Source of the DNA: Candidatus Bathyarchaeota archaeon
Lineage (GTDB): Archaea > Thermoproteota > CALKCG01 > B24
Assembly: GCA_021161255.1 (NCBI GenBank)
Contig: JAGHAZ010000037.1
Coordinates: forward strand, 17,666 to 81,665
Reading direction: 5' to 3'
Length of the DNA: 64,000 nt
Position 1 is the first letter of the stretch. Each line of letters starts with the position of its first letter. Shown here in pieces: positions 5,649 to 36,888 of the stretch. A model generated the notes under the pieces. It saw nothing but the letters and a program-made list of their open reading frames with translations. It ran no database searches and was not told the origin of the DNA. A program made the translations under genes and the position numbers.

Positions 5649-6245
5649 TTGGGGTATATCTTAGAGAGGGTTAGACAATATATTGAGATTTCCAACGCTC
5701 TTGAGATCGTGAGGAGATACTTCGTGATAAACGCGTTCGATGGAGCGGTGACGATACTCGGAGCTGTCATGGGCGCCTACATAAGCGGGATAAACACTCC
5801 TAAGGCCCTTATAAACATGGGCTTCTCCGTCAGCATAGCCCTTGCAATGTCAGGCTTCACGGGAAGCCTCCTTATGGAGCTGGCTGAGAGGGGCGGTGAG
5901 GTTAAGGACTTGGAGAGGAGGCTCTTCCGTAAACTCGACAACTCGCTGATTACGGAGGCGCATAACTTCGCATCGCTGGTGGCGGCTTTAGTGGATGCAT
6001 TATCTCCGGCTGTCGTGGCTTTAACGGCTACTACCCCGTTTATCCTAGCCTATATGGGTATCATGGTTATGGCCGACGCCTTTAAGGCATCCGTACTGAT
6101 CACCCTTACATTCACAGCTCTACTGGGCTTTTATCTAGGTAGGATCTCGAAGACCAGGGTTTGGCTTTACACGGCGGCTATGGTAGGTGCGGGTCTGTTG
6201 ACAGCCGCCTTAAGCCTCATGCTTGAGGGAGTGTTTCATTCATGA
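5649..6245 (+). CDS. VIT1/CCC1-like (COG1814-type) membrane protein
   Basis: 'YFVINAFDGAVTILGAVMGAYISG' resembles the VIT-family N-terminal motif. Several hydrophobic helices follow. TTG start. Confidence 0.5.
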   Translation: MGYILERVRQYIEISNALEIVRRYFVINAFDGAVTILGAVMGAYISGINTPKALINMGFSVSIALAMSGFTGSLLMELAERGGEVKDLERRLFRKLDNSLITEAHNFASLVAALVDALSPAVVALTATTPFILAYMGIMVMADAFKASVLITLTFTALLGFYLGRISKTRVWLYTAAMVGAGLLTAALSLMLEGVFHS

Positions 6246-6523
6246 CGGAGGAGTATGAAGAGGGTGAAGCGGTAATAACGCGTGTAGTGATAGATGTCAT
6301 GAAGCCTAGGGAGCTTCCTTTGATAGACCTAGCCTCGGCGTTGTGCTTAGTAGATGGGGTCGACGAGGTTCACATAATAGTGAGCGAGGTCGACGTTAAG
6401 ACCGAGACTATGAAGATAACGGTGGCGGGTAACAGTATAGACTGCGACGAGCTGTATAAGACGCTTGAAGACTATGGCTGCGCTCTAAGGAGTACAGACG
6501 AGGTAGTGGCTGTCAGAAAATAA
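6242..6523 (+). CDS. DUF211-family small protein
   Basis: 93 aa. 'VVIDVMKPRELPLIDLASAL...GVDEVHIIVSEVDVKTETMKITVAGNSIDCDELYKTLEDYGCALRSTDEVV' follows the archaeal DUF211 pattern. ATGA overlap with the upstream VIT-like gene. Confidence 0.7.
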   Translation: MTEEYEEGEAVITRVVIDVMKPRELPLIDLASALCLVDGVDEVHIIVSEVDVKTETMKITVAGNSIDCDELYKTLEDYGCALRSTDEVVAVRK

Positions 6524-28702: not shown

Positions 28703-28951
28703 GTGCAGCTCTTGCCAAGAAGGTCTAGGAAAAAGACACAGGTCGAGCTGAACGTCGCCGATCATAGGCACTGCGAGGTTTGTGGAAAGGTAATCCCCCC
28801 GGGTGAAAAATACTGCTCTCCAAAGTGTGAGGAGAAGGCTGCTAAAGAGAGACAGAGCATGGAGAGGCTTAGGAAGGTATGGATAGCCATGATAATCATA
28901 TTCATAGCGTTGATGATCGTGCCGTATCTATTTCAAATCCTCGGAGGCTAA
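28703..28951 (+). CDS. DUF2116-like zinc-ribbon protein with C-terminal TM helix
   Basis: 'HRHCEVCGKVIPPGEKYCSPKCEEKAAKERQ' followed by 'VWIAMIIIFIALMIVPYLF'. Confidence 0.55.
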   Translation: MQLLPRRSRKKTQVELNVADHRHCEVCGKVIPPGEKYCSPKCEEKAAKERQSMERLRKVWIAMIIIFIALMIVPYLFQILGG

Positions 28952-28963
28952 CCGTAGGGGGGT

Positions 28964-29701
28964 ATGGGTTTGACCCAGACTAAGAAGAGAAAGCGTAGAA
29001 GAAAGAGTACGTTTTCCCTGGGAGACCCCTTCCCGCTTAAGCTGTTTGAGGACTATATGAAGAAGTGGAAGCAATATAGTGGCGGTGTCATAGTTTGTGA
29101 GCCTAAGAAAACTAAGACGAGGTTTGACAGGATAATATTCCAATCTAGGGTCGTGGGTTTCTTCGACAGGGTATGGATTATGACAGCTATTTGGGATTGC
29201 GTAACCCAGGGTGATATGAACGAGTTGTATGCTAAGGTCTATAGAGAACTTAAGCCTATGGAGTGTAGGCTCTACAGTAAAGGAATTATACGTAAAAGGT
29301 TCTACTTCGCTCCGGAACCTACCCTAAGTAAGCTTGAGAAGATAATACCAGGTTTTAAAATATCCGATAGTCTCTCTAAGAAGCTTAACAGGAGTAAGCG
29401 TATAATGGAGCTTGTGAGGTCTGTTAGACCTGGGTCGCTCACCATATCTCTGCTGTCTGTACCTGTCATGTTTCAGCCTTTCGCATCTCAGGAGGCGGCT
29501 TTGCTTAAAGGGATGGCTTCGTTTTACGAGGAGCCTGAGAGCATCACCTGGATGGTGACGCTGAGTAAAATGTTCAACAGATGGATCGGTATAAAGAAGG
29601 AGCGCGACGATATCATGCGGCTTCTGAATAGTATACACACGGTTATAAGGAGGAAGACGATGAAAGTTATCCGGCAGATAGAGCAATTGTCTACTCCTTA
29701 A
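28964..29701 (+). CDS. Hypothetical protein (245 aa), basic N-terminus
   Basis: ORF lies 12 nt downstream of the DUF2116-like gene. 'TKKRKRRRKS' at the N-terminus. No family recognised. Confidence 0.45.
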   Translation: MGLTQTKKRKRRRKSTFSLGDPFPLKLFEDYMKKWKQYSGGVIVCEPKKTKTRFDRIIFQSRVVGFFDRVWIMTAIWDCVTQGDMNELYAKVYRELKPMECRLYSKGIIRKRFYFAPEPTLSKLEKIIPGFKISDSLSKKLNRSKRIMELVRSVRPGSLTISLLSVPVMFQPFASQEAALLKGMASFYEEPESITWMVTLSKMFNRWIGIKKERDDIMRLLNSIHTVIRRKTMKVIRQIEQLSTP

Positions 29702-30170
29702 GCCTCGGCAAAAGGTCGAAGACGAACTTCGCGATATGAAGCTTTGTAAGCTTATATTCTCCACTCTCCCTCACCACTCGTCCATGTTTAACCATGGAGG
29801 CTAAGGTGTTGTATATCGTTTTCAAAGCCTTTCCAGTGGTTCTAGAAAGCTCGGTCGGAGTCATAGATTCCTTCTCTAACTTCCCTATCCTAAATCCTAT
29901 ATAAGCACCCACCAGGCTCAGCGTTATCGCCTCCTCTGCGGTTAAACCTGTTTTCCTAAGTATTATACCCCCTTCTGTTATCGTCAGGAGGTTTGAACAT
30001 TCCCTCATAAGTCTGTCAAGATTGGGCTCATACACTATCTTAGAAATAGCCTCGTAAGCCGGATACACCTTACTAAGCCACTCAAAAACGGCTTCCAAGA
30101 CGTCGTCCAGCGTACCTGTGAACGACGTTTCCATCTCACCTAACCTAACCCTGACCTCTATTTCGCTCAA
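29691..30170 (-). CDS. Paralogue 3 of a small N-domain + winged-helix family
   Basis: TTG start. 'IEVRVRLGEMETSFTGTLDDVLEAVFEWLSKVYP' ... 'ELSRTTGKALKTIYNTLASMVKHGRVVRESGEYKLT'. Same architecture as 30173..30661, 30658..31200 and 31420..31821. Confidence 0.55.
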   Translation of the reverse strand: MSEIEVRVRLGEMETSFTGTLDDVLEAVFEWLSKVYPAYEAISKIVYEPNLDRLMRECSNLLTITEGGIILRKTGLTAEEAITLSLVGAYIGFRIGKLEKESMTPTELSRTTGKALKTIYNTLASMVKHGRVVRESGEYKLTKLHIAKFVFDLLPRLKE

Positions 30171-30172
30171 TA

Positions 30173-30661
30173 CTACCCACCCCTGATCTTCGGAACCACG
30201 TCTGAAATGAAGACATTCAGACCCTTCAAAGTAATCTTATACTCTCCTCTCTCGAGCTTCTCGACCAGCTGTCTGTTCAGAAGCTCGCTTAACCTAGCGC
30301 TAAGCGTTTTCCTAGACTTAGCTAGCTGTTTAGACAGCTCTTCTAGAGATATGGAGGGCTTATCAGATTTCCCAAACATATAGGCCAGGTATCTAGTTGT
30401 CAGCGCTAAGAGACAGCTCTCTGAAACAGTTAAGCCGCCGATGTCAGCTAGTATAACGGGCTCTGGATTTATAGCGATTAAGCCTTTGAGTGCTTCTGAA
30501 ACCTTCTCGAGGTCTAAATTTAAGCTTAGGTTTCTAACGAGCCTAATCTCTGGATATAACTCCATGACGAATTTTAATAACCCCCTCGTAACGTCTTCGA
30601 CGGTTCCCGAGAACTCAGCCGTCCCCTTCTCGAAGAATACCTTAACTCTAAGCTGGCTCAT
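30173..30661 (-). CDS. Paralogue 2 of a small N-domain + winged-helix family
   Basis: 'LRVKVFFEKGTAEFSGTVEDVTRGLLKFVMELYP' ... 'ELSKQLAKSRKTLSARLSELLNRQLVEKLERGEYKIT'. ATGA overlap with the upstream paralogue. Confidence 0.55.
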   Translation of the reverse strand: MSQLRVKVFFEKGTAEFSGTVEDVTRGLLKFVMELYPEIRLVRNLSLNLDLEKVSEALKGLIAINPEPVILADIGGLTVSESCLLALTTRYLAYMFGKSDKPSISLEELSKQLAKSRKTLSARLSELLNRQLVEKLERGEYKITLKGLNVFISDVVPKIRGG

Positions 30662-31200
30662 AAGATGCCCTCCCTGAGCTTGGGAAGTATAGTTTTTTCA
30701 ACCCAAAGCTGACCTTGAGCCGAAAGCTTCCAGAGAGCCTCCTTCGGGTTAGGTTTGAAAACCTTACCGGTCTTAGCCATCTCCTTGAGCCTAGCCGAGG
30801 TGTTTGAGACCTTGATCCCAGAGTTGCGGAGCAGTAAAGTTATCGTCTTAGGATCGGATATCTGCCCCTCGGAAGCATATAACACAAGGCCTATAGCTTC
30901 ATACTGGCTTAGCCTAGCCTTCTCAGGAGCAACTATCACAGGACCGTCGACACTCAGCTCCACGATACCCTCCAGGAGGTTAGGCAAGTCAGAGCTCTTT
31001 TCCGGAATGTATAGAACCCTCGATCTGCGGTCAGCCTCCAGAACCTGTTTGACCCGTAACACGCCTTCGAGACCCATCGCAGAAGCCTCTTCCACGATAG
31101 CTTTGACGAGTCTAAGCTTTCTCTTAAGCTCCTCAGAGTCTGAAAACTCGAACTCTAGTGAACCGAACCACGTCTGAAAAACAGCCCTAACACCGTTCAT
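30658..31200 (-). CDS. Paralogue 1 of a small N-domain + winged-helix family
   Basis: 'VFQTWFGSLEFEFSDSEELKRKLRLVKAIVEEA' ... 'ITLLLRNSGIKVSNTSARLKEMAKTGKVFKPNPKEALWKLS'. First gene of the three-gene operon. Confidence 0.5.
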   Translation of the reverse strand: MNGVRAVFQTWFGSLEFEFSDSEELKRKLRLVKAIVEEASAMGLEGVLRVKQVLEADRRSRVLYIPEKSSDLPNLLEGIVELSVDGPVIVAPEKARLSQYEAIGLVLYASEGQISDPKTITLLLRNSGIKVSNTSARLKEMAKTGKVFKPNPKEALWKLSAQGQLWVEKTILPKLREGIL

Positions 31201-31284
31201 TCTAGTAGAATAAATTAAACTAACTTGTATATAAGCTTATACATATTCCCTCAGTTTCCCAAATATAAAAACTCTTAACCAGGC

Positions 31285-31390
31285 TTTTTTCCATGAAATT
31301 CTATGGAAAAAATCCGTGATATAAATCCGTGGGAATAACAGGGTAAACATGAGCTAGTGAATTCCATGGATTTTTCCATAGAATTTTACA
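31285..31390. promoter_or_regulatory. Nested inverted/direct repeat array (TTCCAT/ATGGAA half-sites) between the 133-aa wHTH gene and the three-paralogue operon
   Basis: TTTTTTCCAT(31285-94)-N8-ATGGAAAAAA(31303-12). GAAATTCTATGGAAAAAATCC (31295-315) pairs with GGATTTTTCCATAGAATTTT (31368-87), with a 1-nt indel. AAATCCGTG occurs twice (31310-18, 31323-31). TCCATGGA palindrome at 31363-70. Confidence 0.6.
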
Positions 31391-31419
31391 GGACTCCCGA
31401 TAAAGGCTCTTTTCCATCT

Positions 31420-31821
31420 TCACATAACGGGAGGGCGTTTCTGGTAATACCTATACTTACCTTTCTTACCATCCCGGTAGAGTATCCCGCTTCTGACGAG
31501 GTCTGCTAGCATGTGAGCCACCGCTGTCCTATCGTAGTGAAATCCACGTTTACTCATCTCCTCATGGGTTTCGGCTAAAGACCTTCCCACGCTAAACCAG
31601 CCCTCCCGCCATAGGCTGAGAATCACTCCTCTGCAGGTAGAAGGTATAGGTTCTCTAGCCTCCTTATCCTCCGGCTTAACAGGCTCACGTTCACTGATAG
31701 GAACGTTTTGGAAGGCTGTGAGAAATTCTTCCACGGCTTTTCTGAGCTGGTCTTCTTTACACTCTATCTCCGCCTCTACTCCACGGTATTTCAACCGTAT
31801 CTTAACCTTCCTATTTTCCAT
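31420..31821 (-). CDS. Paralogue 4 (shortest) of the small N-domain + winged-helix family; likely local regulator
   Basis: 'VKIRLKYRGVEAEIECKEDQLRKAVEEFLTAF' ... 'MSKRGFHYDRTAVAHMLADLVRSGILYRDGKKGKYRYY'. Divergent from the NurA-like gene. Confidence 0.55.
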   Translation of the reverse strand: MENRKVKIRLKYRGVEAEIECKEDQLRKAVEEFLTAFQNVPISEREPVKPEDKEAREPIPSTCRGVILSLWREGWFSVGRSLAETHEEMSKRGFHYDRTAVAHMLADLVRSGILYRDGKKGKYRYYQKRPPVM

Positions 31822-31834
31822 CTATGCTCACTTT

Positions 31835-31852
31835 GTTGATTGAACAATCAAC
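31835..31852. promoter_or_regulatory. 18-nt palindrome GTTGATTG-AA-CAATCAAC in the divergent promoter region (candidate operator)
   Basis: Perfect 8+2+8 inverted repeat, 14 nt upstream of the minus-strand ATG (31821). A TATA-like CTTATAAG (31860-67) and a GGTGAT SD-like element precede the NurA-like ATG at 31900. Confidence 0.55.
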
Positions 31853-31899
31853 AACAACACTTATAAGGTGGTTCCTCCCTAACTAAGGTTGGTGATTGC

Positions 31900-33048
31900 A
31901 TGGATATAAGCGTTTCCCCCTCAACAAGCAATAACCAGGATGGTTTAAAGACGGCTTTATGGCTCAAGGAGATGCCCTACATCAAGCTGTACCAGGAGCT
32001 TATCGATAAAGGAACGGAACTTCTCCTAGACAGGCTGAGGAGGTATAGGAAGGAGATATATAGTCTTATAGATGACCTTAGAGGCAGGGTTAAGGTTTAC
32101 AAAGCCTCGTATGACGAGGATGGACCGGCATCGTCTAGGATAGTGGGTGTAGACGCTGGTAGAAACGGAACAGAGTATAAATTCGCGTATATCCCCCTCT
32201 ATGGCGCGGTAGCTGTTTTGGTTGAAAACTGGAGCATAGTCGAGGAGCCTCTATGCGTAACCGGTCCGCCTGATATATGGACGTCTGAAGTCGACCCTGA
32301 TAAGCGTGAAAGCCTGCTACACATGGCTTTGGAGTACTACGTAGCTTCCAAGGCCGTCGAAAGGTGGAAGCCAGACTACCTACTGCTGGACGGAGGAATA
32401 GTCCTCAACCCGAGGTTATATCCCGGGTTTAAAACCTCACCTCAGTATGAGGGGGACTTCTACTTCACGGTCATAACGGTGCTTGAGCTTCTAGAGAACT
32501 GTAGAAAGTTCAAGGTGCCGGTCTTAGGGTTTGTGAAACGCACGCATATGAGCTTCTATACATCGTATACCAAGAACCCCCAGATAAGAGACTCGATATT
32601 GATGAACTTTATACTCCGAGATGGAGAGTACTCGGAGCCGTTTAGGGTCGAGAACGAGATCACGCAGTCCTACAAAACGGTCGCCGAGGATTTAGGCTAC
32701 AGCTCCACTCTACCGGTGATATACTCCAGCTACGTTAAGACAGGGTCGATGCCGTTTAGGGTCGAAATTCCACTGTTCTGCTTGGATAAGATTGAGGAGC
32801 TGATGTCGATCGTATGGACCATGGCTGGTCTAAACGGCATACCGTATCCTATTCATGAAGCAGATAGGCTTTCGAGGATAACGCGTCCGACGTCTAACGT
32901 ACATTCGCTCGTACTTTATTCTAAAGCCTTAGAGCTCGTCAAAAGAGGGGAGATGGAGCTCAAGGACCTAGACTTGCTTCTCTTAGAGTATGGTGAAAGC
33001 TGGGTTTTGAACAGCAGGCTCGACGGTCTTGAGGGTGAAGGTGTTTGA
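31900..33048 (+). CDS. nurA: NurA-domain 5'-3' nuclease-like protein
   Basis: 'RIVGVDAGRNGTEYKFAYIPLYGAVAV' and 'DYLLLDGGIVLNPR' resemble the NurA catalytic Asp motifs; 382 aa. Stop overlaps (TTGA) the HerA-like start. Confidence 0.65.
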   Translation: MDISVSPSTSNNQDGLKTALWLKEMPYIKLYQELIDKGTELLLDRLRRYRKEIYSLIDDLRGRVKVYKASYDEDGPASSRIVGVDAGRNGTEYKFAYIPLYGAVAVLVENWSIVEEPLCVTGPPDIWTSEVDPDKRESLLHMALEYYVASKAVERWKPDYLLLDGGIVLNPRLYPGFKTSPQYEGDFYFTVITVLELLENCRKFKVPVLGFVKRTHMSFYTSYTKNPQIRDSILMNFILRDGEYSEPFRVENEITQSYKTVAEDLGYSSTLPVIYSSYVKTGSMPFRVEIPLFCLDKIEELMSIVWTMAGLNGIPYPIHEADRLSRITRPTSNVHSLVLYSKALELVKRGEMELKDLDLLLLEYGESWVLNSRLDGLEGEGV

Positions 33049-34601
33049 GGCAGATAGGCTATGTGTTATCTGGCTGCAATCAAAACAGAGTCTCCTTCGT
33101 CATCATGGAGGACGCAGAGGTCTATGTAAACGGCTACTACTTCATCAATCACCCCTTAAGCCCTGTAGGAGAATTCAACCCCGTCCTGCTGAGGGTTCAC
33201 AAGATAACGCCTTATAATCCTGAGATGACTGTGGGAAGCTTCGGACCCATAGCCGGTAAGAAGGGTGAGAAAGCATACTACGGTAAGAAGCTCGAATACC
33301 TGGTGGCCTGGGCGGAGGTCTTAGGCTACATCTCCTGGGATGGGAAATGGAGGAGGCTCGAATGCAGCCCGAACACATGGGACTCGGTATACGAACCGAA
33401 CCAGGAGGAGTTGAAAGGCTTCTTCCTGAAACTCTCAGGTAGACGTTTGATCGATAGAACAGACTTCCCGGTGAAGATAGGACGGCATAGGGGACTAGAC
33501 ATGCCCTTCTACCTAGACCTAAACGCGATAGCAAAGGGACACATGTTCGTCGCAGGAATGACCAGGTCAGGGAAGAGTACTTTTGTGTTGAACCTTATGG
33601 CTAGGTCGTTGGAGCAGGAGCCTAAGCCTAGGTTTATAGTTTTCGATAGGCGGTGTGAGTATAGCTTGTTGACTAAGTATGGTGCGGTTATGCTTCCTTA
33701 TTTCAGGTTTGTGCCTAGGGCGGAGCTTGTGTCTCCTGAGCTTGTCGCTTCTAGGCTGGGTTTAGACCCTCGGAGAAGCGATGGTAGGCTTTTATGCGAG
33801 GCTTTGAACTCCATAAGGGCGGAGGGGCTGGAGCTTACGGTTAAAAACGTCCTTAGGAAATGCGTCGAGATCTCGCCTTATCTTCTCTCTAGGGGGAGGG
33901 ACTCTGTGCTCGCGAAGATCAGGTGGGTTCTCGATAAGCGTGGGAGTCAATTGTTCGGGATAGAGCATAAGCCGTTAAACATAATAGAAACGGTCTACCG
34001 GAATCCTGCGGTTATAGTGGACTTCTCCGTCGACGCGAACATAGAGGATCAGCAGCTGGCGGCTAAGTATATCATAAGGAACGTGATGCACTATGCTGTA
34101 GAGCATAGGAAGGCCGGGGACTTCGCGGTTATATTCGTCATAGAGGAGGCTCAGTATTTCATACCTGAGAGGGGTCTTAAGATAGAGGTCGGAAGCCCGG
34201 AGAAGACGGGTGTGGATAAGCAGATAATAGAGGCCATAAGTCAAGCAGGAGGATACAACGTAGGCTTCATACTGGTTACCCAGAGACCTGCTTATGTCTC
34301 TAAATCCGTGATCTCGCAGTGTAACACGATAGCCGCGTTCAGGCTTATGGCCGGTAACGACCAGGAGGCCATAATAAAATATTCCGAGTACGGTAGCGAG
34401 CGGATGGCCGACTACCTCCCCGGTTTAGCAGACCATGAAGCTTTGATATGGGGTATGGCGTCCCCTGTCCCGTTTCCGGTTACCGTCGAGGTCGACGTGA
34501 AAGATTATCCGGCTAAAACAAGTGTGGTAGCTAAAGTCGCTTGGGAAAGGATGGGGTTAGTAGACCGTTCGACGGAGGATGAGGTCAAAGAGGTAGCGTA
34601 A
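33045..34601 (+). CDS. herA: HerA/FtsK-superfamily (DUF87-type) ATPase with N-terminal HAS-barrel-like domain
   Basis: Walker A 'VAGMTRSGKSTFVLNLM', Walker B 'AVIFVIEEAQYFIPE', 'GFILVTQRPAYVSKSVISQCNT'. N-terminal beta-rich ~100 aa. Confidence 0.8.
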   Translation: MRQIGYVLSGCNQNRVSFVIMEDAEVYVNGYYFINHPLSPVGEFNPVLLRVHKITPYNPEMTVGSFGPIAGKKGEKAYYGKKLEYLVAWAEVLGYISWDGKWRRLECSPNTWDSVYEPNQEELKGFFLKLSGRRLIDRTDFPVKIGRHRGLDMPFYLDLNAIAKGHMFVAGMTRSGKSTFVLNLMARSLEQEPKPRFIVFDRRCEYSLLTKYGAVMLPYFRFVPRAELVSPELVASRLGLDPRRSDGRLLCEALNSIRAEGLELTVKNVLRKCVEISPYLLSRGRDSVLAKIRWVLDKRGSQLFGIEHKPLNIIETVYRNPAVIVDFSVDANIEDQQLAAKYIIRNVMHYAVEHRKAGDFAVIFVIEEAQYFIPERGLKIEVGSPEKTGVDKQIIEAISQAGGYNVGFILVTQRPAYVSKSVISQCNTIAAFRLMAGNDQEAIIKYSEYGSERMADYLPGLADHEALIWGMASPVPFPVTVEVDVKDYPAKTSVVAKVAWERMGLVDRSTEDEVKEVA

Positions 34602-35583
34602 CCGGTTTACCTGTCTCAGCCGATTTTACGGCGGCAAGCGTTAACTCTAGGGTTTTCACCCCTTCAGATATAGGCGTTCTCGTATCTCTATCCTCTAGGA
34701 TCGCGTTCACCAGGTCCAATTCCGCCAGAGCCATAGGTGCTCTTGAAGGCTCCCTATGCTCCTCAATGGTGAATGGTGTTTTACCGCTCCAGTAGATTCT
34801 CAGATGGTTGGGGTCTTCTGACTCCAGCATAGCGTCGCGTCCTATTATGCTCCATCTCAGCCACCAGTATCCCGGAGCGGCTCCTATGGTCGAAGAGACG
34901 ACTCCGATGGCTCCGGATTTAAACCTCATCATCACACTGCTCACGTCTTCTATGGTCATGTCCTTTACATCGGTGTAGAATCGTCTATCCATTTCCGCAT
35001 AGACCCTCTCCACGTCTCCGCATAACCATCTTAAAATGTCGTATAGGTGGGTAGACTGCTCGACTATCTGACCTCCGCTCTTAGACCTGTCGATCCACCA
35101 GTCTCGTCTGATGAACCTACACCAATAGACCCCGTTAACCAACCCTATGGCGCCGGCCTCGCCGGATTCTATGATCCTCTTCGCTCTCTCCACCCCGGCT
35201 GCAAACCTTAGCTGGTAGCCTACTTGGCTTTTAACCCCATACTTCTCGACGGCCCTAGCCATCTCCCTCGCAAGCTCGATGTCTAGGGCTATGGGCTTCT
35301 CGATGTATATGTGTATCCCCTTCTCGGCTGCAACCATCACCTCGTCCCTATGCGCAAACGGGGGTAGGCATATGAAGACTAGGTCGAGCTTAGATTTTTC
35401 AAGCATCTCCCTCCAATCTGCATAGGCCTCTCCACCGTAGGTTGAGGCTAGGGCCTTAGCCCTATCGATGGATATATCGCTGAACGCCTTAAGCTCCACT
35501 CTATTAAGTCTTGCGAGGTTATCGATGTGGGCTCTGGCTATACCTCCGCATCCTATAAACCCGACGGCTAAATGTCTAGACAT
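34585..35583 (-). CDS. Gfo/Idh/MocA-family NAD(P)-dependent oxidoreductase
   Basis: 'LAVGFIGCGGIARAHIDNL' Rossmann N-terminus and 'IYIEKPIA' (EKP motif). Confidence 0.85.
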   Translation of the reverse strand: MSRHLAVGFIGCGGIARAHIDNLARLNRVELKAFSDISIDRAKALASTYGGEAYADWREMLEKSKLDLVFICLPPFAHRDEVMVAAEKGIHIYIEKPIALDIELAREMARAVEKYGVKSQVGYQLRFAAGVERAKRIIESGEAGAIGLVNGVYWCRFIRRDWWIDRSKSGGQIVEQSTHLYDILRWLCGDVERVYAEMDRRFYTDVKDMTIEDVSSVMMRFKSGAIGVVSSTIGAAPGYWWLRWSIIGRDAMLESEDPNHLRIYWSGKTPFTIEEHREPSRAPMALAELDLVNAILEDRDTRTPISEGVKTLELTLAAVKSAETGKPVTLPL

Positions 35584-36078: not shown

Positions 36079-36888
36079 TTATATGAGTCCCTCATAGACC
36101 TCTGGCCTTCTATGTTTAAGCATGGGAAGAGCCTCTCTAACATGGTCGACTCTATCTAAGCTTATCCAGGCCGTTACTAGGCAGGGCTTCTCTAACCCCC
36201 TAGCCACCACTACTCCAAAGGGATCCACTATACAGGTTCCACCCGTGAAGGGCCCTCCTATTTGGCAAGACGCGGCTACGTAGATTCCGTTCTCTAGGGC
36301 TCTAGTCTTCAGGATCGTTTCCAAGTGAGCCTCTTTAAACGGTCCGCTGAACCAGGCCGTGGGCACTAGTAGGAGGTTCATCCCCCTAACCGCTAGAAGC
36401 CTGGCGAGTTCGGGAAACCGTATATCATAGCATATGGACACGGCTATATGCCAACCATTCACTTCCAAAATGGTGGATGGAGAATCACCTGCTTCGAAGA
36501 CTTGAGACTCCTTCACGTTTAAGGCGTCGAATAGATGGATTTTACGGTATTTCAGAACGATCTTCCCCTCGTTATCCAGGATGACCGCGGTATCGTAGAG
36601 TTTCCCATCAGATTCTTCGACCACACCGAAGGCTAGGTAGACCCTATACTTCTTTGCCAGGTTGGACATAGCACCTGTCAAAGGACCTGGGATCGGTTCG
36701 GCTAACCTACGGAGTTCTCCGAGCGACCCGAAGCCTGGGAAGTACTCGGGAAAGCATATGAGTCTGCAACCTCCTGCAGAGGCCTCGGATACGTACTCCT
36801 CAGCTTCTGCGAGTATTTGGTCTTTAGCTTTACCCACGGAATCGAATTGGACGCATGCTATCTTAAACCGTCGACCCAGGAAGACCAT
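36079..36888 (-). CDS. Carbon-nitrogen hydrolase (nitrilase superfamily)
   Basis: 'ICFPEYF' (Glu), 'YRKIHLF' (Lys) and 'VSICYDIRFPE' (Cys) form the E-K-C triad. Confidence 0.85.
   Translation of the reverse strand: MVFLGRRFKIACVQFDSVGKAKDQILAEAEEYVSEASAGGCRLICFPEYFPGFGSLGELRRLAEPIPGPLTGAMSNLAKKYRVYLAFGVVEESDGKLYDTAVILDNEGKIVLKYRKIHLFDALNVKESQVFEAGDSPSTILEVNGWHIAVSICYDIRFPELARLLAVRGMNLLLVPTAWFSGPFKEAHLETILKTRALENGIYVAASCQIGGPFTGGTCIVDPFGVVVARGLEKPCLVTAWISLDRVDHVREALPMLKHRRPEVYEGLI

Follow-up and report, generated by a model that had tools for sequence, protein, structure and literature searches.

A conserved NurA–HerA gene pair linked to a family of small winged-helix proteins in a Bathyarchaeota genome

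Genes and candidate operator at the locus

The region described here lies in a 64-kb stretch of DNA (hereafter, the window) from a Candidatus Bathyarchaeota archaeon (GTDB lineage B24; contig JAGHAZ010000037.1). It comes from a member of Bathyarchaeia close to the MAG (metagenome-assembled genome) B24, the HerA proteins being 99% identical. It contains a nurA–herA pair, which encodes a NurA-like nuclease and a HerA-like ATPase, together with four genes for small proteins carrying a C-terminal winged helix-turn-helix (wHTH). Six open reading frames (ORFs) had been described at this locus in an original prediction, made from the sequence by inspection, and all of them were recovered with matching positions, overlaps and motifs. 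Three of the small genes form a trio on the minus strand: the first, p180 (30658–31200), has a stop codon that overlaps the start of p162 (30173–30661) by 4 nt, and p162 is located 2 nt upstream of p159 (29691–30170). The fourth, p133 (31420–31821, also on the minus strand), is divergent from nurA (31900–33048, plus strand, 382 aa), and the 78 bp that separate them (31822–31899) constitute a divergent promoter and candidate operator. The herA gene (33045–34601, plus strand, 518 aa) starts with a TTG codon that overlaps the nurA stop codon by 4 nt. The ORF coordinates bear out these junctions, as they had been predicted. The spacer between p180 and p133 (31201–31419) takes in the 3' end of p133 and the presumed promoter of the trio, with a conserved TATA-like GTATATAA block.

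Both enzymes were recognized by their Pfam families. NurA matched the NurA family (E = 2e-18; 67 bits, cutoff 21), and HerA matched DUF87/HerA (E = 8e-13; 49 bits, cutoff 23) as well as FtsK_SpoIIIE; against the HerA models of PADLOC its match reached 1e-31. The Walker A (GMTRSGKST, residues 171–179) and Walker B (VIFVIEEAQYF, residues 362–372) motifs pointed out before in HerA are present, as are the VGVDAGRNG and YLLLDGGIV motifs of NurA, and the NurA residues D85, E137 and D164 were invariant across 24 homologues. The N-terminus of HerA had been labelled HAS-barrel-like; no specific match supporting this label was found. HerA proteins of the PDB matched only the C-terminal half of the window HerA (37–52 bits) and the NurA profile had no PDB sequence match, while orthologues of the window HerA align from residue 1. 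Orthologous HerAs of Bathyarchaeia carry one or two inteins, inserted at sites equivalent to residues ~165–173 (Walker A, window ~33540–33560) and ~415–422 of the window protein, which is itself intein-free. The intein-bearing proteins measure 1051 aa (loci L007 and L016), 1318 aa (L009), 1399 aa (L024), 864 aa (L025) and 836 aa (L026), and the one from L009 contains two Intein_splicing matches and a LAGLIDADG_3 match in Pfam. Inteins are typical of conserved, important enzymes. Judged by its sequence, the pair is composed of intact genes with conserved catalytic motifs.

The four small proteins had been proposed to be paralogues with a small N-terminal domain and a wHTH. This proposal was confirmed, with p133 being a remote, shortened and divergent member. 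In BLASTP, p159 and p162 are clearly related (E = 2e-21) and p159 and p180 marginally so (E = 7e-4), and p133 had no pairwise match to p159, p162 or p180. Comparison of the p133 orthologue profile with that of the family gave an alignment of 123 columns (hhalign probability 96.2%, E = 2.2e-9), spanning both the N-terminal hairpin-helix and the wHTH; the hidden Markov model of the family matched p159 with E = 2e-53 and p180 with E = 3e-23. The AlphaFold2 models of p162 and p133 (predicted local distance difference test values of 80 and 77, respectively) agree with the beta-beta-alpha plus wHTH architecture described earlier: in both, a beta-hairpin and a helix are joined by a disordered linker to a winged helix made of three helices, and in p162 there are also a small helix/hairpin and a helix at the C-terminus. 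The layout of p159 consists of the N-terminal beta-hairpin and helix, a middle element, the wHTH and a C-terminal helix.

Foldseek searches with p162 and p133 retrieved only generic winged helices of the MarR, PadR, AspA, Fur and BlaI regulators (probability ~1.0; best E-values of 2.6e-3 and 2.6e-2), and found no counterpart for the N-terminal domain or for the overall architecture. The wHTH of p162 superposed on that of AspA, the centromere-binding protein of pNOB8, with a TMt of 0.76. Weak wHTH matches to TrmB and HVO_A0261_N were obtained for p159, and 6 of 45 p133 homologues weakly matched Penicillinase_R. All the Pfam matches of the small proteins of the window were below the gathering threshold, and a few distant members of the family pass it with HTH_24 or MarR. 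Neither of the two small-protein alignment sets is covered by a Pfam or NCBIfam family, the named database members are all annotated as 'hypothetical protein' from metagenome-assembled genomes (MAGs), and the literature and curated family libraries searched contained no description of the module or the family, in agreement with the earlier remark that the family was not recognized. An exhaustive profile search from p162 gathered 553 representative clusters (50% identity; E ≤ 1e-3), mostly of ~165 aa; by comparison, a word-index homology search with p162, which returned 7 proteins, understates the size of the family.

In the 78-bp spacer between p133 and nurA, we observed a perfect palindrome, TTGTTGATTG-AA-CAATCAACAA, at 31833–31854, a palindromic TATA-like CTTATAAG at 31861–31868, and a third copy of the motif, CAATCACCAA on the minus strand (31889–31898), abutting the ATG of nurA. 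The exact sequence CAATCAMCAA occurs three times in this spacer and nowhere else in the 64 kb. The orthologous loci retain the palindromic element, or else have inverted repeats of variant sequence that end in CAACAACAYTTATAWA. The spacer between p180 and p133 also contains repeats: a perfect 16-nt inverted repeat (31296–31311 and 31371–31386, 59 nt apart), a 13-nt hairpin (31282–31294 and 31303–31315) and four copies of TTTTCCAT, all in the region 31282–31417. This second spacer is conserved only patchily in the orthologous loci, and Rfam yielded no match between 28.5 and 35 kb. Its repeats could be the operator of the trio, a terminator of p133 or a small RNA.

Conservation of the module and its relation to the canonical operon

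GTDB genomes were scanned with an alignment of clade I NurA, the clade of the window protein, and then with p133 as the anchor. The NurA scan detected 41 loci in 41 Bathyarchaeia genomes, one per genome. The loci in which NurA is at least 50% identical to the window NurA, plus the divergent lineage L048, were called type A, which includes the window, and those in which it is ~40% identical were called type B. All type A loci with enough flank hold two or three family genes and a p133 gene, arranged either divergently, as in the window, or co-directionally. The type B loci, with no family genes within 6 kb, represent clade I relatives of the window pair without the small-protein set. Both types have flanking genes in common, namely a GFO/IDH/MocA oxidoreductase (window 34585–35583) and a 269-aa ORF (36079–36888) provisionally assigned as a nitrilase-type hydrolase, and so share one chromosomal neighbourhood. 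In 16 of 21 type B loci, a calcineurin-like metallophosphoesterase of ~225 aa, much shorter than Mre11, is encoded after herA (for example, L011 10785–11483; Metallophos_3, 1e-17).

A homologue of p133 is present in at least 356 species-level GTDB genomes from Bathyarchaeia and Nitrososphaeria, the latter including Nitrososphaerales, Nitrosopumilales and other Nitrososphaeria MAGs. Gene context was counted in the best 80 loci, 70 of which have at least 1.5 kb of upstream flank. NurA–HerA divergently adjoins p133 in 69 of these 70 loci, and in the remaining one the pair is 2.6 kb away; one to four further family genes lie just downstream of p133 in 44 of them. The same layout recurs in Nitrososphaerales and other archaeal metagenome contigs, in divergent and co-directional versions. 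The module is thus strongly conserved and the linkage of p133 to NurA–HerA is near-absolute, and the neighbourhood survey, which covers two archaeal classes, bears out the view that the wHTH paralogues are conserved neighbours of the pair.

The pairs linked to p133 belong to two clades: clade I, which contains the window pair (HerA of ~510–530 aa), and clade II, found in most Bathyarchaeia and in Nitrososphaeria (HerA of ~480–510 aa). The HerA proteins of the two clades are ~21% identical (30–45 bits), and BLAST detected no similarity between their NurA proteins. In contrast, p133 is ~48% identical across this divide; since it is conserved while the enzymes differ, the small-protein set is the stable element, and in the window lineage it appears to have been joined to the clade I pair by relocation or displacement. 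The association of the same small proteins with two HerA–NurA clades that are only ~21% identical suggests that p133, at least, would act through DNA, at the operator, and favours such a role over a fixed protein interface with the enzymes. It also suggests that the core that stays stable in the evolution of such systems can be a regulatory or accessory module.

The comparison across loci resolved four positionally conserved orthologous groups. Group alpha includes p180 of the window and a ~157-aa gene of the clade II loci; group beta includes p162 and p159, the two copies of a lineage-specific duplication, and a ~170-aa gene of the clade II loci; group gamma, absent from the window, is represented in the clade II loci by a ~165-aa p133-like gene; and group delta comprises p133 and the divergent anchor gene of the clade II loci. 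In support of these assignments, p180 is orthologous to the first-position gene of the type A and L012 loci and matches the ~157-aa second-position gene of the clade II loci with 77–90 bits, and the best match of p159 is the ~170-aa third-position gene of those loci. The best-conserved component is p133, with 94 homologues, ~48–50% identity to the Nitrososphaerales proteins and 26 invariant columns across 45 sequences, including an H-Y-D-R-T-A-V-x-H helix. Members of the family were also found in other contexts. Rare fusions join the family module to a Ser/Thr kinase, to DUF488 or to an N-terminal domain of ~200 aa, in which a PD-(D/E)xK-like motif was recognized by eye only, with no Pfam match. 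At L055 (1082–5592) and L056, family members share an operon with the gene for an XPB/Rad25-type helicase (ResIII plus ERCC3_RAD25_C). The fusion with the ~200-aa domain belongs to this operon, and the many small genes around it matched no family.

HerA–NurA is the end-resection machine of archaea, and its regulation and targeting are poorly understood. As noted in the original prediction, mre11 and rad50 are absent from the window: a tblastn search of the 64 kb, with Mre11 and Rad50 from a close relative as queries, gave nothing significant. Over partial lengths, the window HerA is ~29% and the window NurA 25% (103 aa) identical to the canonical proteins of the close relative. A scan with a canonical-like HerA (from L075) found this protein in many archaeal lineages, including five genomes of the window lineage, and these five genomes carry a separate nurA–herA–mre11–rad50 operon. 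In one of them, DRTY-6_201901_bins_74, the operon nurA(427)–herA(530)–mre11(384)–rad50(874), with 283 bits to Mre11_Sulfo and 342 bits to Rad50_Sulf, shares a scaffold with the p133-linked pair, at a distance of ~63 kb. Both systems also coexist in many clade II genomes. From the separate operon in the five genomes it follows that the window pair is a second, non-canonical system, distinct from the end-resection operon, as had been proposed; the same finding contradicts the idea that it is the sole HerA–NurA of its lineage.

The NCBIfam models gave a similar picture. The window HerA scored 49 bits with helicase_HerA (cutoff 970) and 43 with HerA_Thermprot (cutoff 800), and the window NurA 17.6 with NurA_Sulf (cutoff 400). 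The canonical-like HerA proteins, with 231 and 202 bits, are below the cutoffs too, but ~5-fold above the window HerA; the 231 bits correspond to the helicase_HerA match in the relatives, for which the window protein has 49. It seems very improbable, then, that the pair is an ordinary end-resection HerA–NurA that has diverged, with wHTH genes as lineage-specific neighbours of no special significance. The intact NurA and HerA domains, the translational coupling, the origin of each of the 41 clade I loci from a different genome and the syntenic chromosomal context would all agree with that explanation. However, the separate operon of the five genomes, the distance between the HerA scores, and the conservation of the wHTH neighbours in 69 of 70 loci, over two classes and two enzyme clades, argue against it.

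Compared with canonical HerA–NurA (Sulfolobus 4D2I, Pyrococcus NurA), the window pair is alike in the overlap of a nurA gene with a gene of the HerA/FtsK superfamily, presumably co-translated, and in the conserved Walker A and B motifs and acidic residues of NurA. It differs in having no mre11 or rad50 partner in the 64 kb, in scores that are far below the equivalog cutoffs, and in its four dedicated wHTH genes and its own candidate operator. Additional HerA–NurA arrangements were seen in other genomes. In the MAG B24_G1 (L075 204–3273), a canonical-like NurA(484)–HerA(543) pair and a p133-linked module of clade II are separated by ~1 kb, which holds two small ORFs, so that two HerA–NurA systems share one locus. 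At L011 (4686–7347), and also at L034, L042 and L053, the region just upstream of the type B pair encodes a HerA-like protein of 495 aa (DUF87) and, after it, a NurA-like one of 390 aa, with the motifs AVDSSRS and LFLDGSFY and no Pfam match. Given this extra pair, some Bathyarchaeia may have three or four HerA–nuclease pairs.

Chromosomal context and the question of a defensive or mobile origin

The earlier interpretation stood as regards the distinct pair, the conserved wHTH partners, the apparent self-regulation and the undescribed family, but not as regards a defensive or mobile-element origin. The flanks are syntenic housekeeping genes, with no viral, CRISPR or defence-island signal, each of the 41 clade I loci came from a different genome, and the ~48% identity of p133 extends across classes. 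No relatives of p133 or of the nuclease-fused family member were found in the viral contigs of IMG/VR, and PHROGs contained none beyond generic HerA and wHTH matches. The 64-kb window has no tandem or CRISPR-like repeat arrays.

An anti-virus or anti-plasmid function, in which the HerA motor and the NurA effector would destroy invading DNA and the wHTH paralogues would act as sensors or regulators, is in our view rather unlikely. Among the HerA models, the best scores of the window protein were those of PADLOC and HerA_antiphage (74 and 56 bits), above the repair models (43–49 bits). There were also weak matches to the wHTH proteins mad1, mad8, Csa3 and AbiEi, and the fusions to DUF488 and to the nuclease-like domain, as well as the location of the XPB-linked variant amid many small genes of no recognized family, would suit a defence role. 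A precedent exists in Thermoproteales (Pyrobaculum), with multiple vertically inherited nurA–herA pairs, one of them CRISPR-linked as nurA–csm6–herA (Bernick et al. 2012, PMC3396285). The window module resembles those pairs in being an extra, vertically inherited pair with small accessory genes, one such gene being embedded in the published case (PMC3396285). There, however, the accessory is Csm6, beside CRISPR arrays, whereas here it is a set of four wHTH paralogues with no CRISPR array or cas gene nearby, and the window nurA and herA overlap directly, with no csm6 between them.

Several results weigh against defence. The anti-phage scores all fall short of the curated cutoffs (800 and 850 for the two HerA_antiphage models) by an order of magnitude, and over the NCBIfam HerA equivalogs as a whole the window protein obtained 43–74 bits against cutoffs of 800–970. 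The module lacks a SIR2, DUF4297 or Csm6 partner as well as a CRISPR array, its housekeeping synteny and its distribution over two classes look vertical, and the ~48% identity of p133 together with the conserved operator would be unusual for fast-evolving defence genes, to which the lack of IMG/VR and PHROGs relatives is added. The SIR2–HerA and DUF4297–HerA systems, whose HerA models were the best-scoring ones, are likewise small operons that pair a hexameric ATPase of the HerA family with an effector enzyme. Nevertheless, their effector is SIR2 or DUF4297, while here it is NurA, accompanied by wHTH accessories; the window scores are ~10-fold below the cutoffs, and the chromosomal context is syntenic, with no mobile or defence-island signature.

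An origin as a mobile-element remnant, or as an apparatus for DNA transfer or segregation (Ced-like import, conjugation or partition) in which the wHTH proteins would direct a HerA/FtsK-type pump, is hardly to be expected. Its membership in the HerA/FtsK superfamily, the weak matches to CedD, VirB4 and TraD, and the presence of AspA among the structural matches of the p162 wHTH would be consistent with it. A conceptual precedent is provided by the gamma domain of FtsK, a wHTH fused to the motor that reads the FtsK orienting polar sequences (KOPS), which are chromosomal polarity motifs, and loads or orients this motor of the FtsK–HerA superfamily. By analogy, the window module could also couple winged-helix readers to a motor of the same superfamily; here, however, the readers are separate proteins and the sole motif found is in their own promoter. 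Moreover, the module contains no integrase, relaxase, pilus, membrane or ParA genes, the partner is always the NurA nuclease, there are no viral relatives, and the GC content of the module genes (0.46–0.51) is unremarkable with respect to the window mean (0.50).

Candidate operator, proposed mechanism and neighbouring genes

The candidate operator of the window was compared with the promoters of other loci. The 49 clade II loci that were subjected to an unbiased k-mer scan are phylogenetically related to one another; TTCACCAA was present in 40 of them, ATGCACAA in 36 and GCACAACA in 35, with an expected count of ~0.5 for each, in the arrangement ...TTGTTCAATCAMCAAGATTCACCAA...TATATAAATGTTGTGCATGAACAAGATGCACAA... 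The half-sites of clade II correspond to two CAATCA[A/C]CAA-type repeats and an inverted TGCACAA repeat, and the motif is common to the window (clade I) and to the clade II loci. Across lineages, CAACA/TGTTG was enriched ~20-fold (61 observed versus 2.9 expected). Motif clusters were present in 59 of the 80 p133 loci, and in none of 80 canonical-operon loci or 17 type B upstream regions. The operator-like motif (CAATCAMCAA/TGCACAA) around a bidirectional TATA therefore marks p133-linked promoters only, which supports the earlier suggestion that the module is self-regulated. Regulation by p133 of the canonical or type B operons was considered and rejected, given that no motif is found there. 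In the co-directional versions of the module (L008, L012, L022 and L048), no CAATCAMCAA-type motif was present upstream; the region preceding the first small gene contains TTACGTAA/TACGT elements instead (L008 ~6380–6480, L012 ~5900–6030, L022 and L048).

Taking these results together, we lean towards viewing the region as one instance of a module that is conserved and inherited with the chromosome, and in which a non-canonical NurA–HerA pair and a dedicated winged-helix set carry out locally self-regulated DNA processing. In the mechanism that we propose, p133 would be a sequence-specific DNA-binding protein that recognizes the CAATCAMCAA/TGCACAA repeats around the shared palindromic TATA, and would thereby autoregulate its own gene and gate nurA–herA transcription. 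Given the position of the sites, over or beside the predicted start sites, a repressor would be the simplest case, with a logic resembling that of local repressors of the BlaI/MecI or LexA type. More tentatively, the translationally coupled trio might be made in fixed proportion and might assemble, through the N-terminal beta-hairpin-helix, into a multi-winged-helix hetero-oligomer; bound to DNA, this complex could serve as a co-regulator of the promoter, or else it could target or gate HerA–NurA on particular substrates. The catalytic motifs and the established biochemistry of HerA–NurA suggest that the pair would translocate and degrade DNA. The module would work alongside the classic NurA–HerA–Mre11–Rad50 operon, not replacing it, and this coexistence makes a specialized, tightly controlled DNA-processing task the most likely one; specialized repair, a damage response or surveillance may be its biological role. 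A targeting role is supported by the occurrence of family members with an XPB-type helicase and in fusions to enzymatic domains.

It is doubtful, though conceivable, that the four small proteins are transcription factors only, that is, layered regulators of nurA–herA and perhaps of other genes, which would neither act on the enzymes physically nor target them to substrates. This would fit with their wHTH fold and its MarR, Fur and BlaI-like matches, with a conserved operator that has several half-sites and three copies of the motif in the window, with the retention of the small proteins while the enzyme clade was swapped, and with a trio that is dispensable or distant in 26 of 70 loci. Three or four dedicated, coupled, paralogous regulators would nevertheless be unusual for a two-gene operon, and they belong to distinct orthologous groups retained over long evolutionary times. 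Furthermore, the recruitment of the family to other helicase–nuclease contexts and enzymatic fusions suggests a targeting module, and no wider regulon is visible, since the 64 kb holds no other copies of the motif. Compared with the local wHTH repressors (BlaI/MecI 'Penicillinase_R', MarR, Fur and PadR/AspA), all four proteins are similar in their C-terminal winged helix, and p133 in its orientation, divergent from the gene that it likely controls, with palindromic repeats in the spacer between the two. In contrast, there is no significant sequence or fold match to these repressors (the Foldseek E-values given above being the best), which have no counterpart of the N-terminal beta-hairpin-helix and disordered linker, and here a set of three or four paralogues is involved.

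Other observations count against the self-regulated module that we favour. The binding of p133 to the motif and the trio complex are predictions from sequence. The motif was spotted by eye before testing, and the relatedness of the clade II loci means that the enrichment figures overstate independence. Lineage L058 is without the CAACA motif, and the co-directional operons have different upstream motifs, the repeated TTACGTAA-like/TACGT elements. In 26 of 70 loci, p133 and NurA–HerA are present with no trio within 2.5 kb. The canonical operon was seen in relatives, at ~80% HerA identity, and neither in this genome nor in the MAG B24 itself. Lastly, the family is not exclusive to HerA–NurA, as indicated by the XPB-type helicase operon and the kinase, DUF488 and nuclease-like fusions.

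A broader possibility, which we regard as speculative and consider improbable though somewhat less so than a purely transcriptional role, is that the four-group family is the core of a new archaeal DNA-surveillance system. A multi-winged-helix complex would shut its own promoter and, upon a signal of DNA damage or foreign DNA, would load or direct the attached helicase–nuclease (clade I or II HerA–NurA, or the XPB-type helicase). To our knowledge, archaea have no LexA-type damage-response repressor. If this proposal were true, the module would provide Bathyarchaeia and Nitrososphaeria with a damage-response switch that is SOS-like and independent of LexA, and at the same time with an adaptor that targets the motor. 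Both classes are environmentally abundant, and Nitrososphaeria includes the ammonia oxidizers. The HerA–NurA kind of helicase–nuclease is already known, and the accessory/regulatory family is novel. The results define, in these two classes, a second HerA–NurA pathway that coexists with the Mre11–Rad50-linked one; the dedicated, previously unannotated protein family and the concrete candidate operator offer handles for experiments, and the module points to a DNA-processing pathway that has not been studied.

Other genes accompany the module. A gene of ~232 aa (cluster c11), with a possible N-terminal wHTH, sits between the trio and p133 in eight type A loci (L009, L020, L021, L024–L027 and L050), the window being without it; it was considered as a further family member and rejected (hhalign probability 41%). 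On the other side of the trio, a 245-aa protein (p245, cluster c16; 28964–29701, plus strand), for which no family match was found, is encoded by a gene whose 3' end overlaps p159 by 11 nt; as a wHTH family member it was discarded as well (hhalign probability 8%). Homologues of this 245-aa protein adjoin the trio on the opposite strand in the type A loci L001, L020, L021 and L027, and the protein may be a further accessory of the module. In the window, its gene is preceded by an ORF for an 82-aa zinc-ribbon protein (28703–28951, plus strand), and a small zinc-ribbon ORF occupies the same position in L020, L021 and L027.

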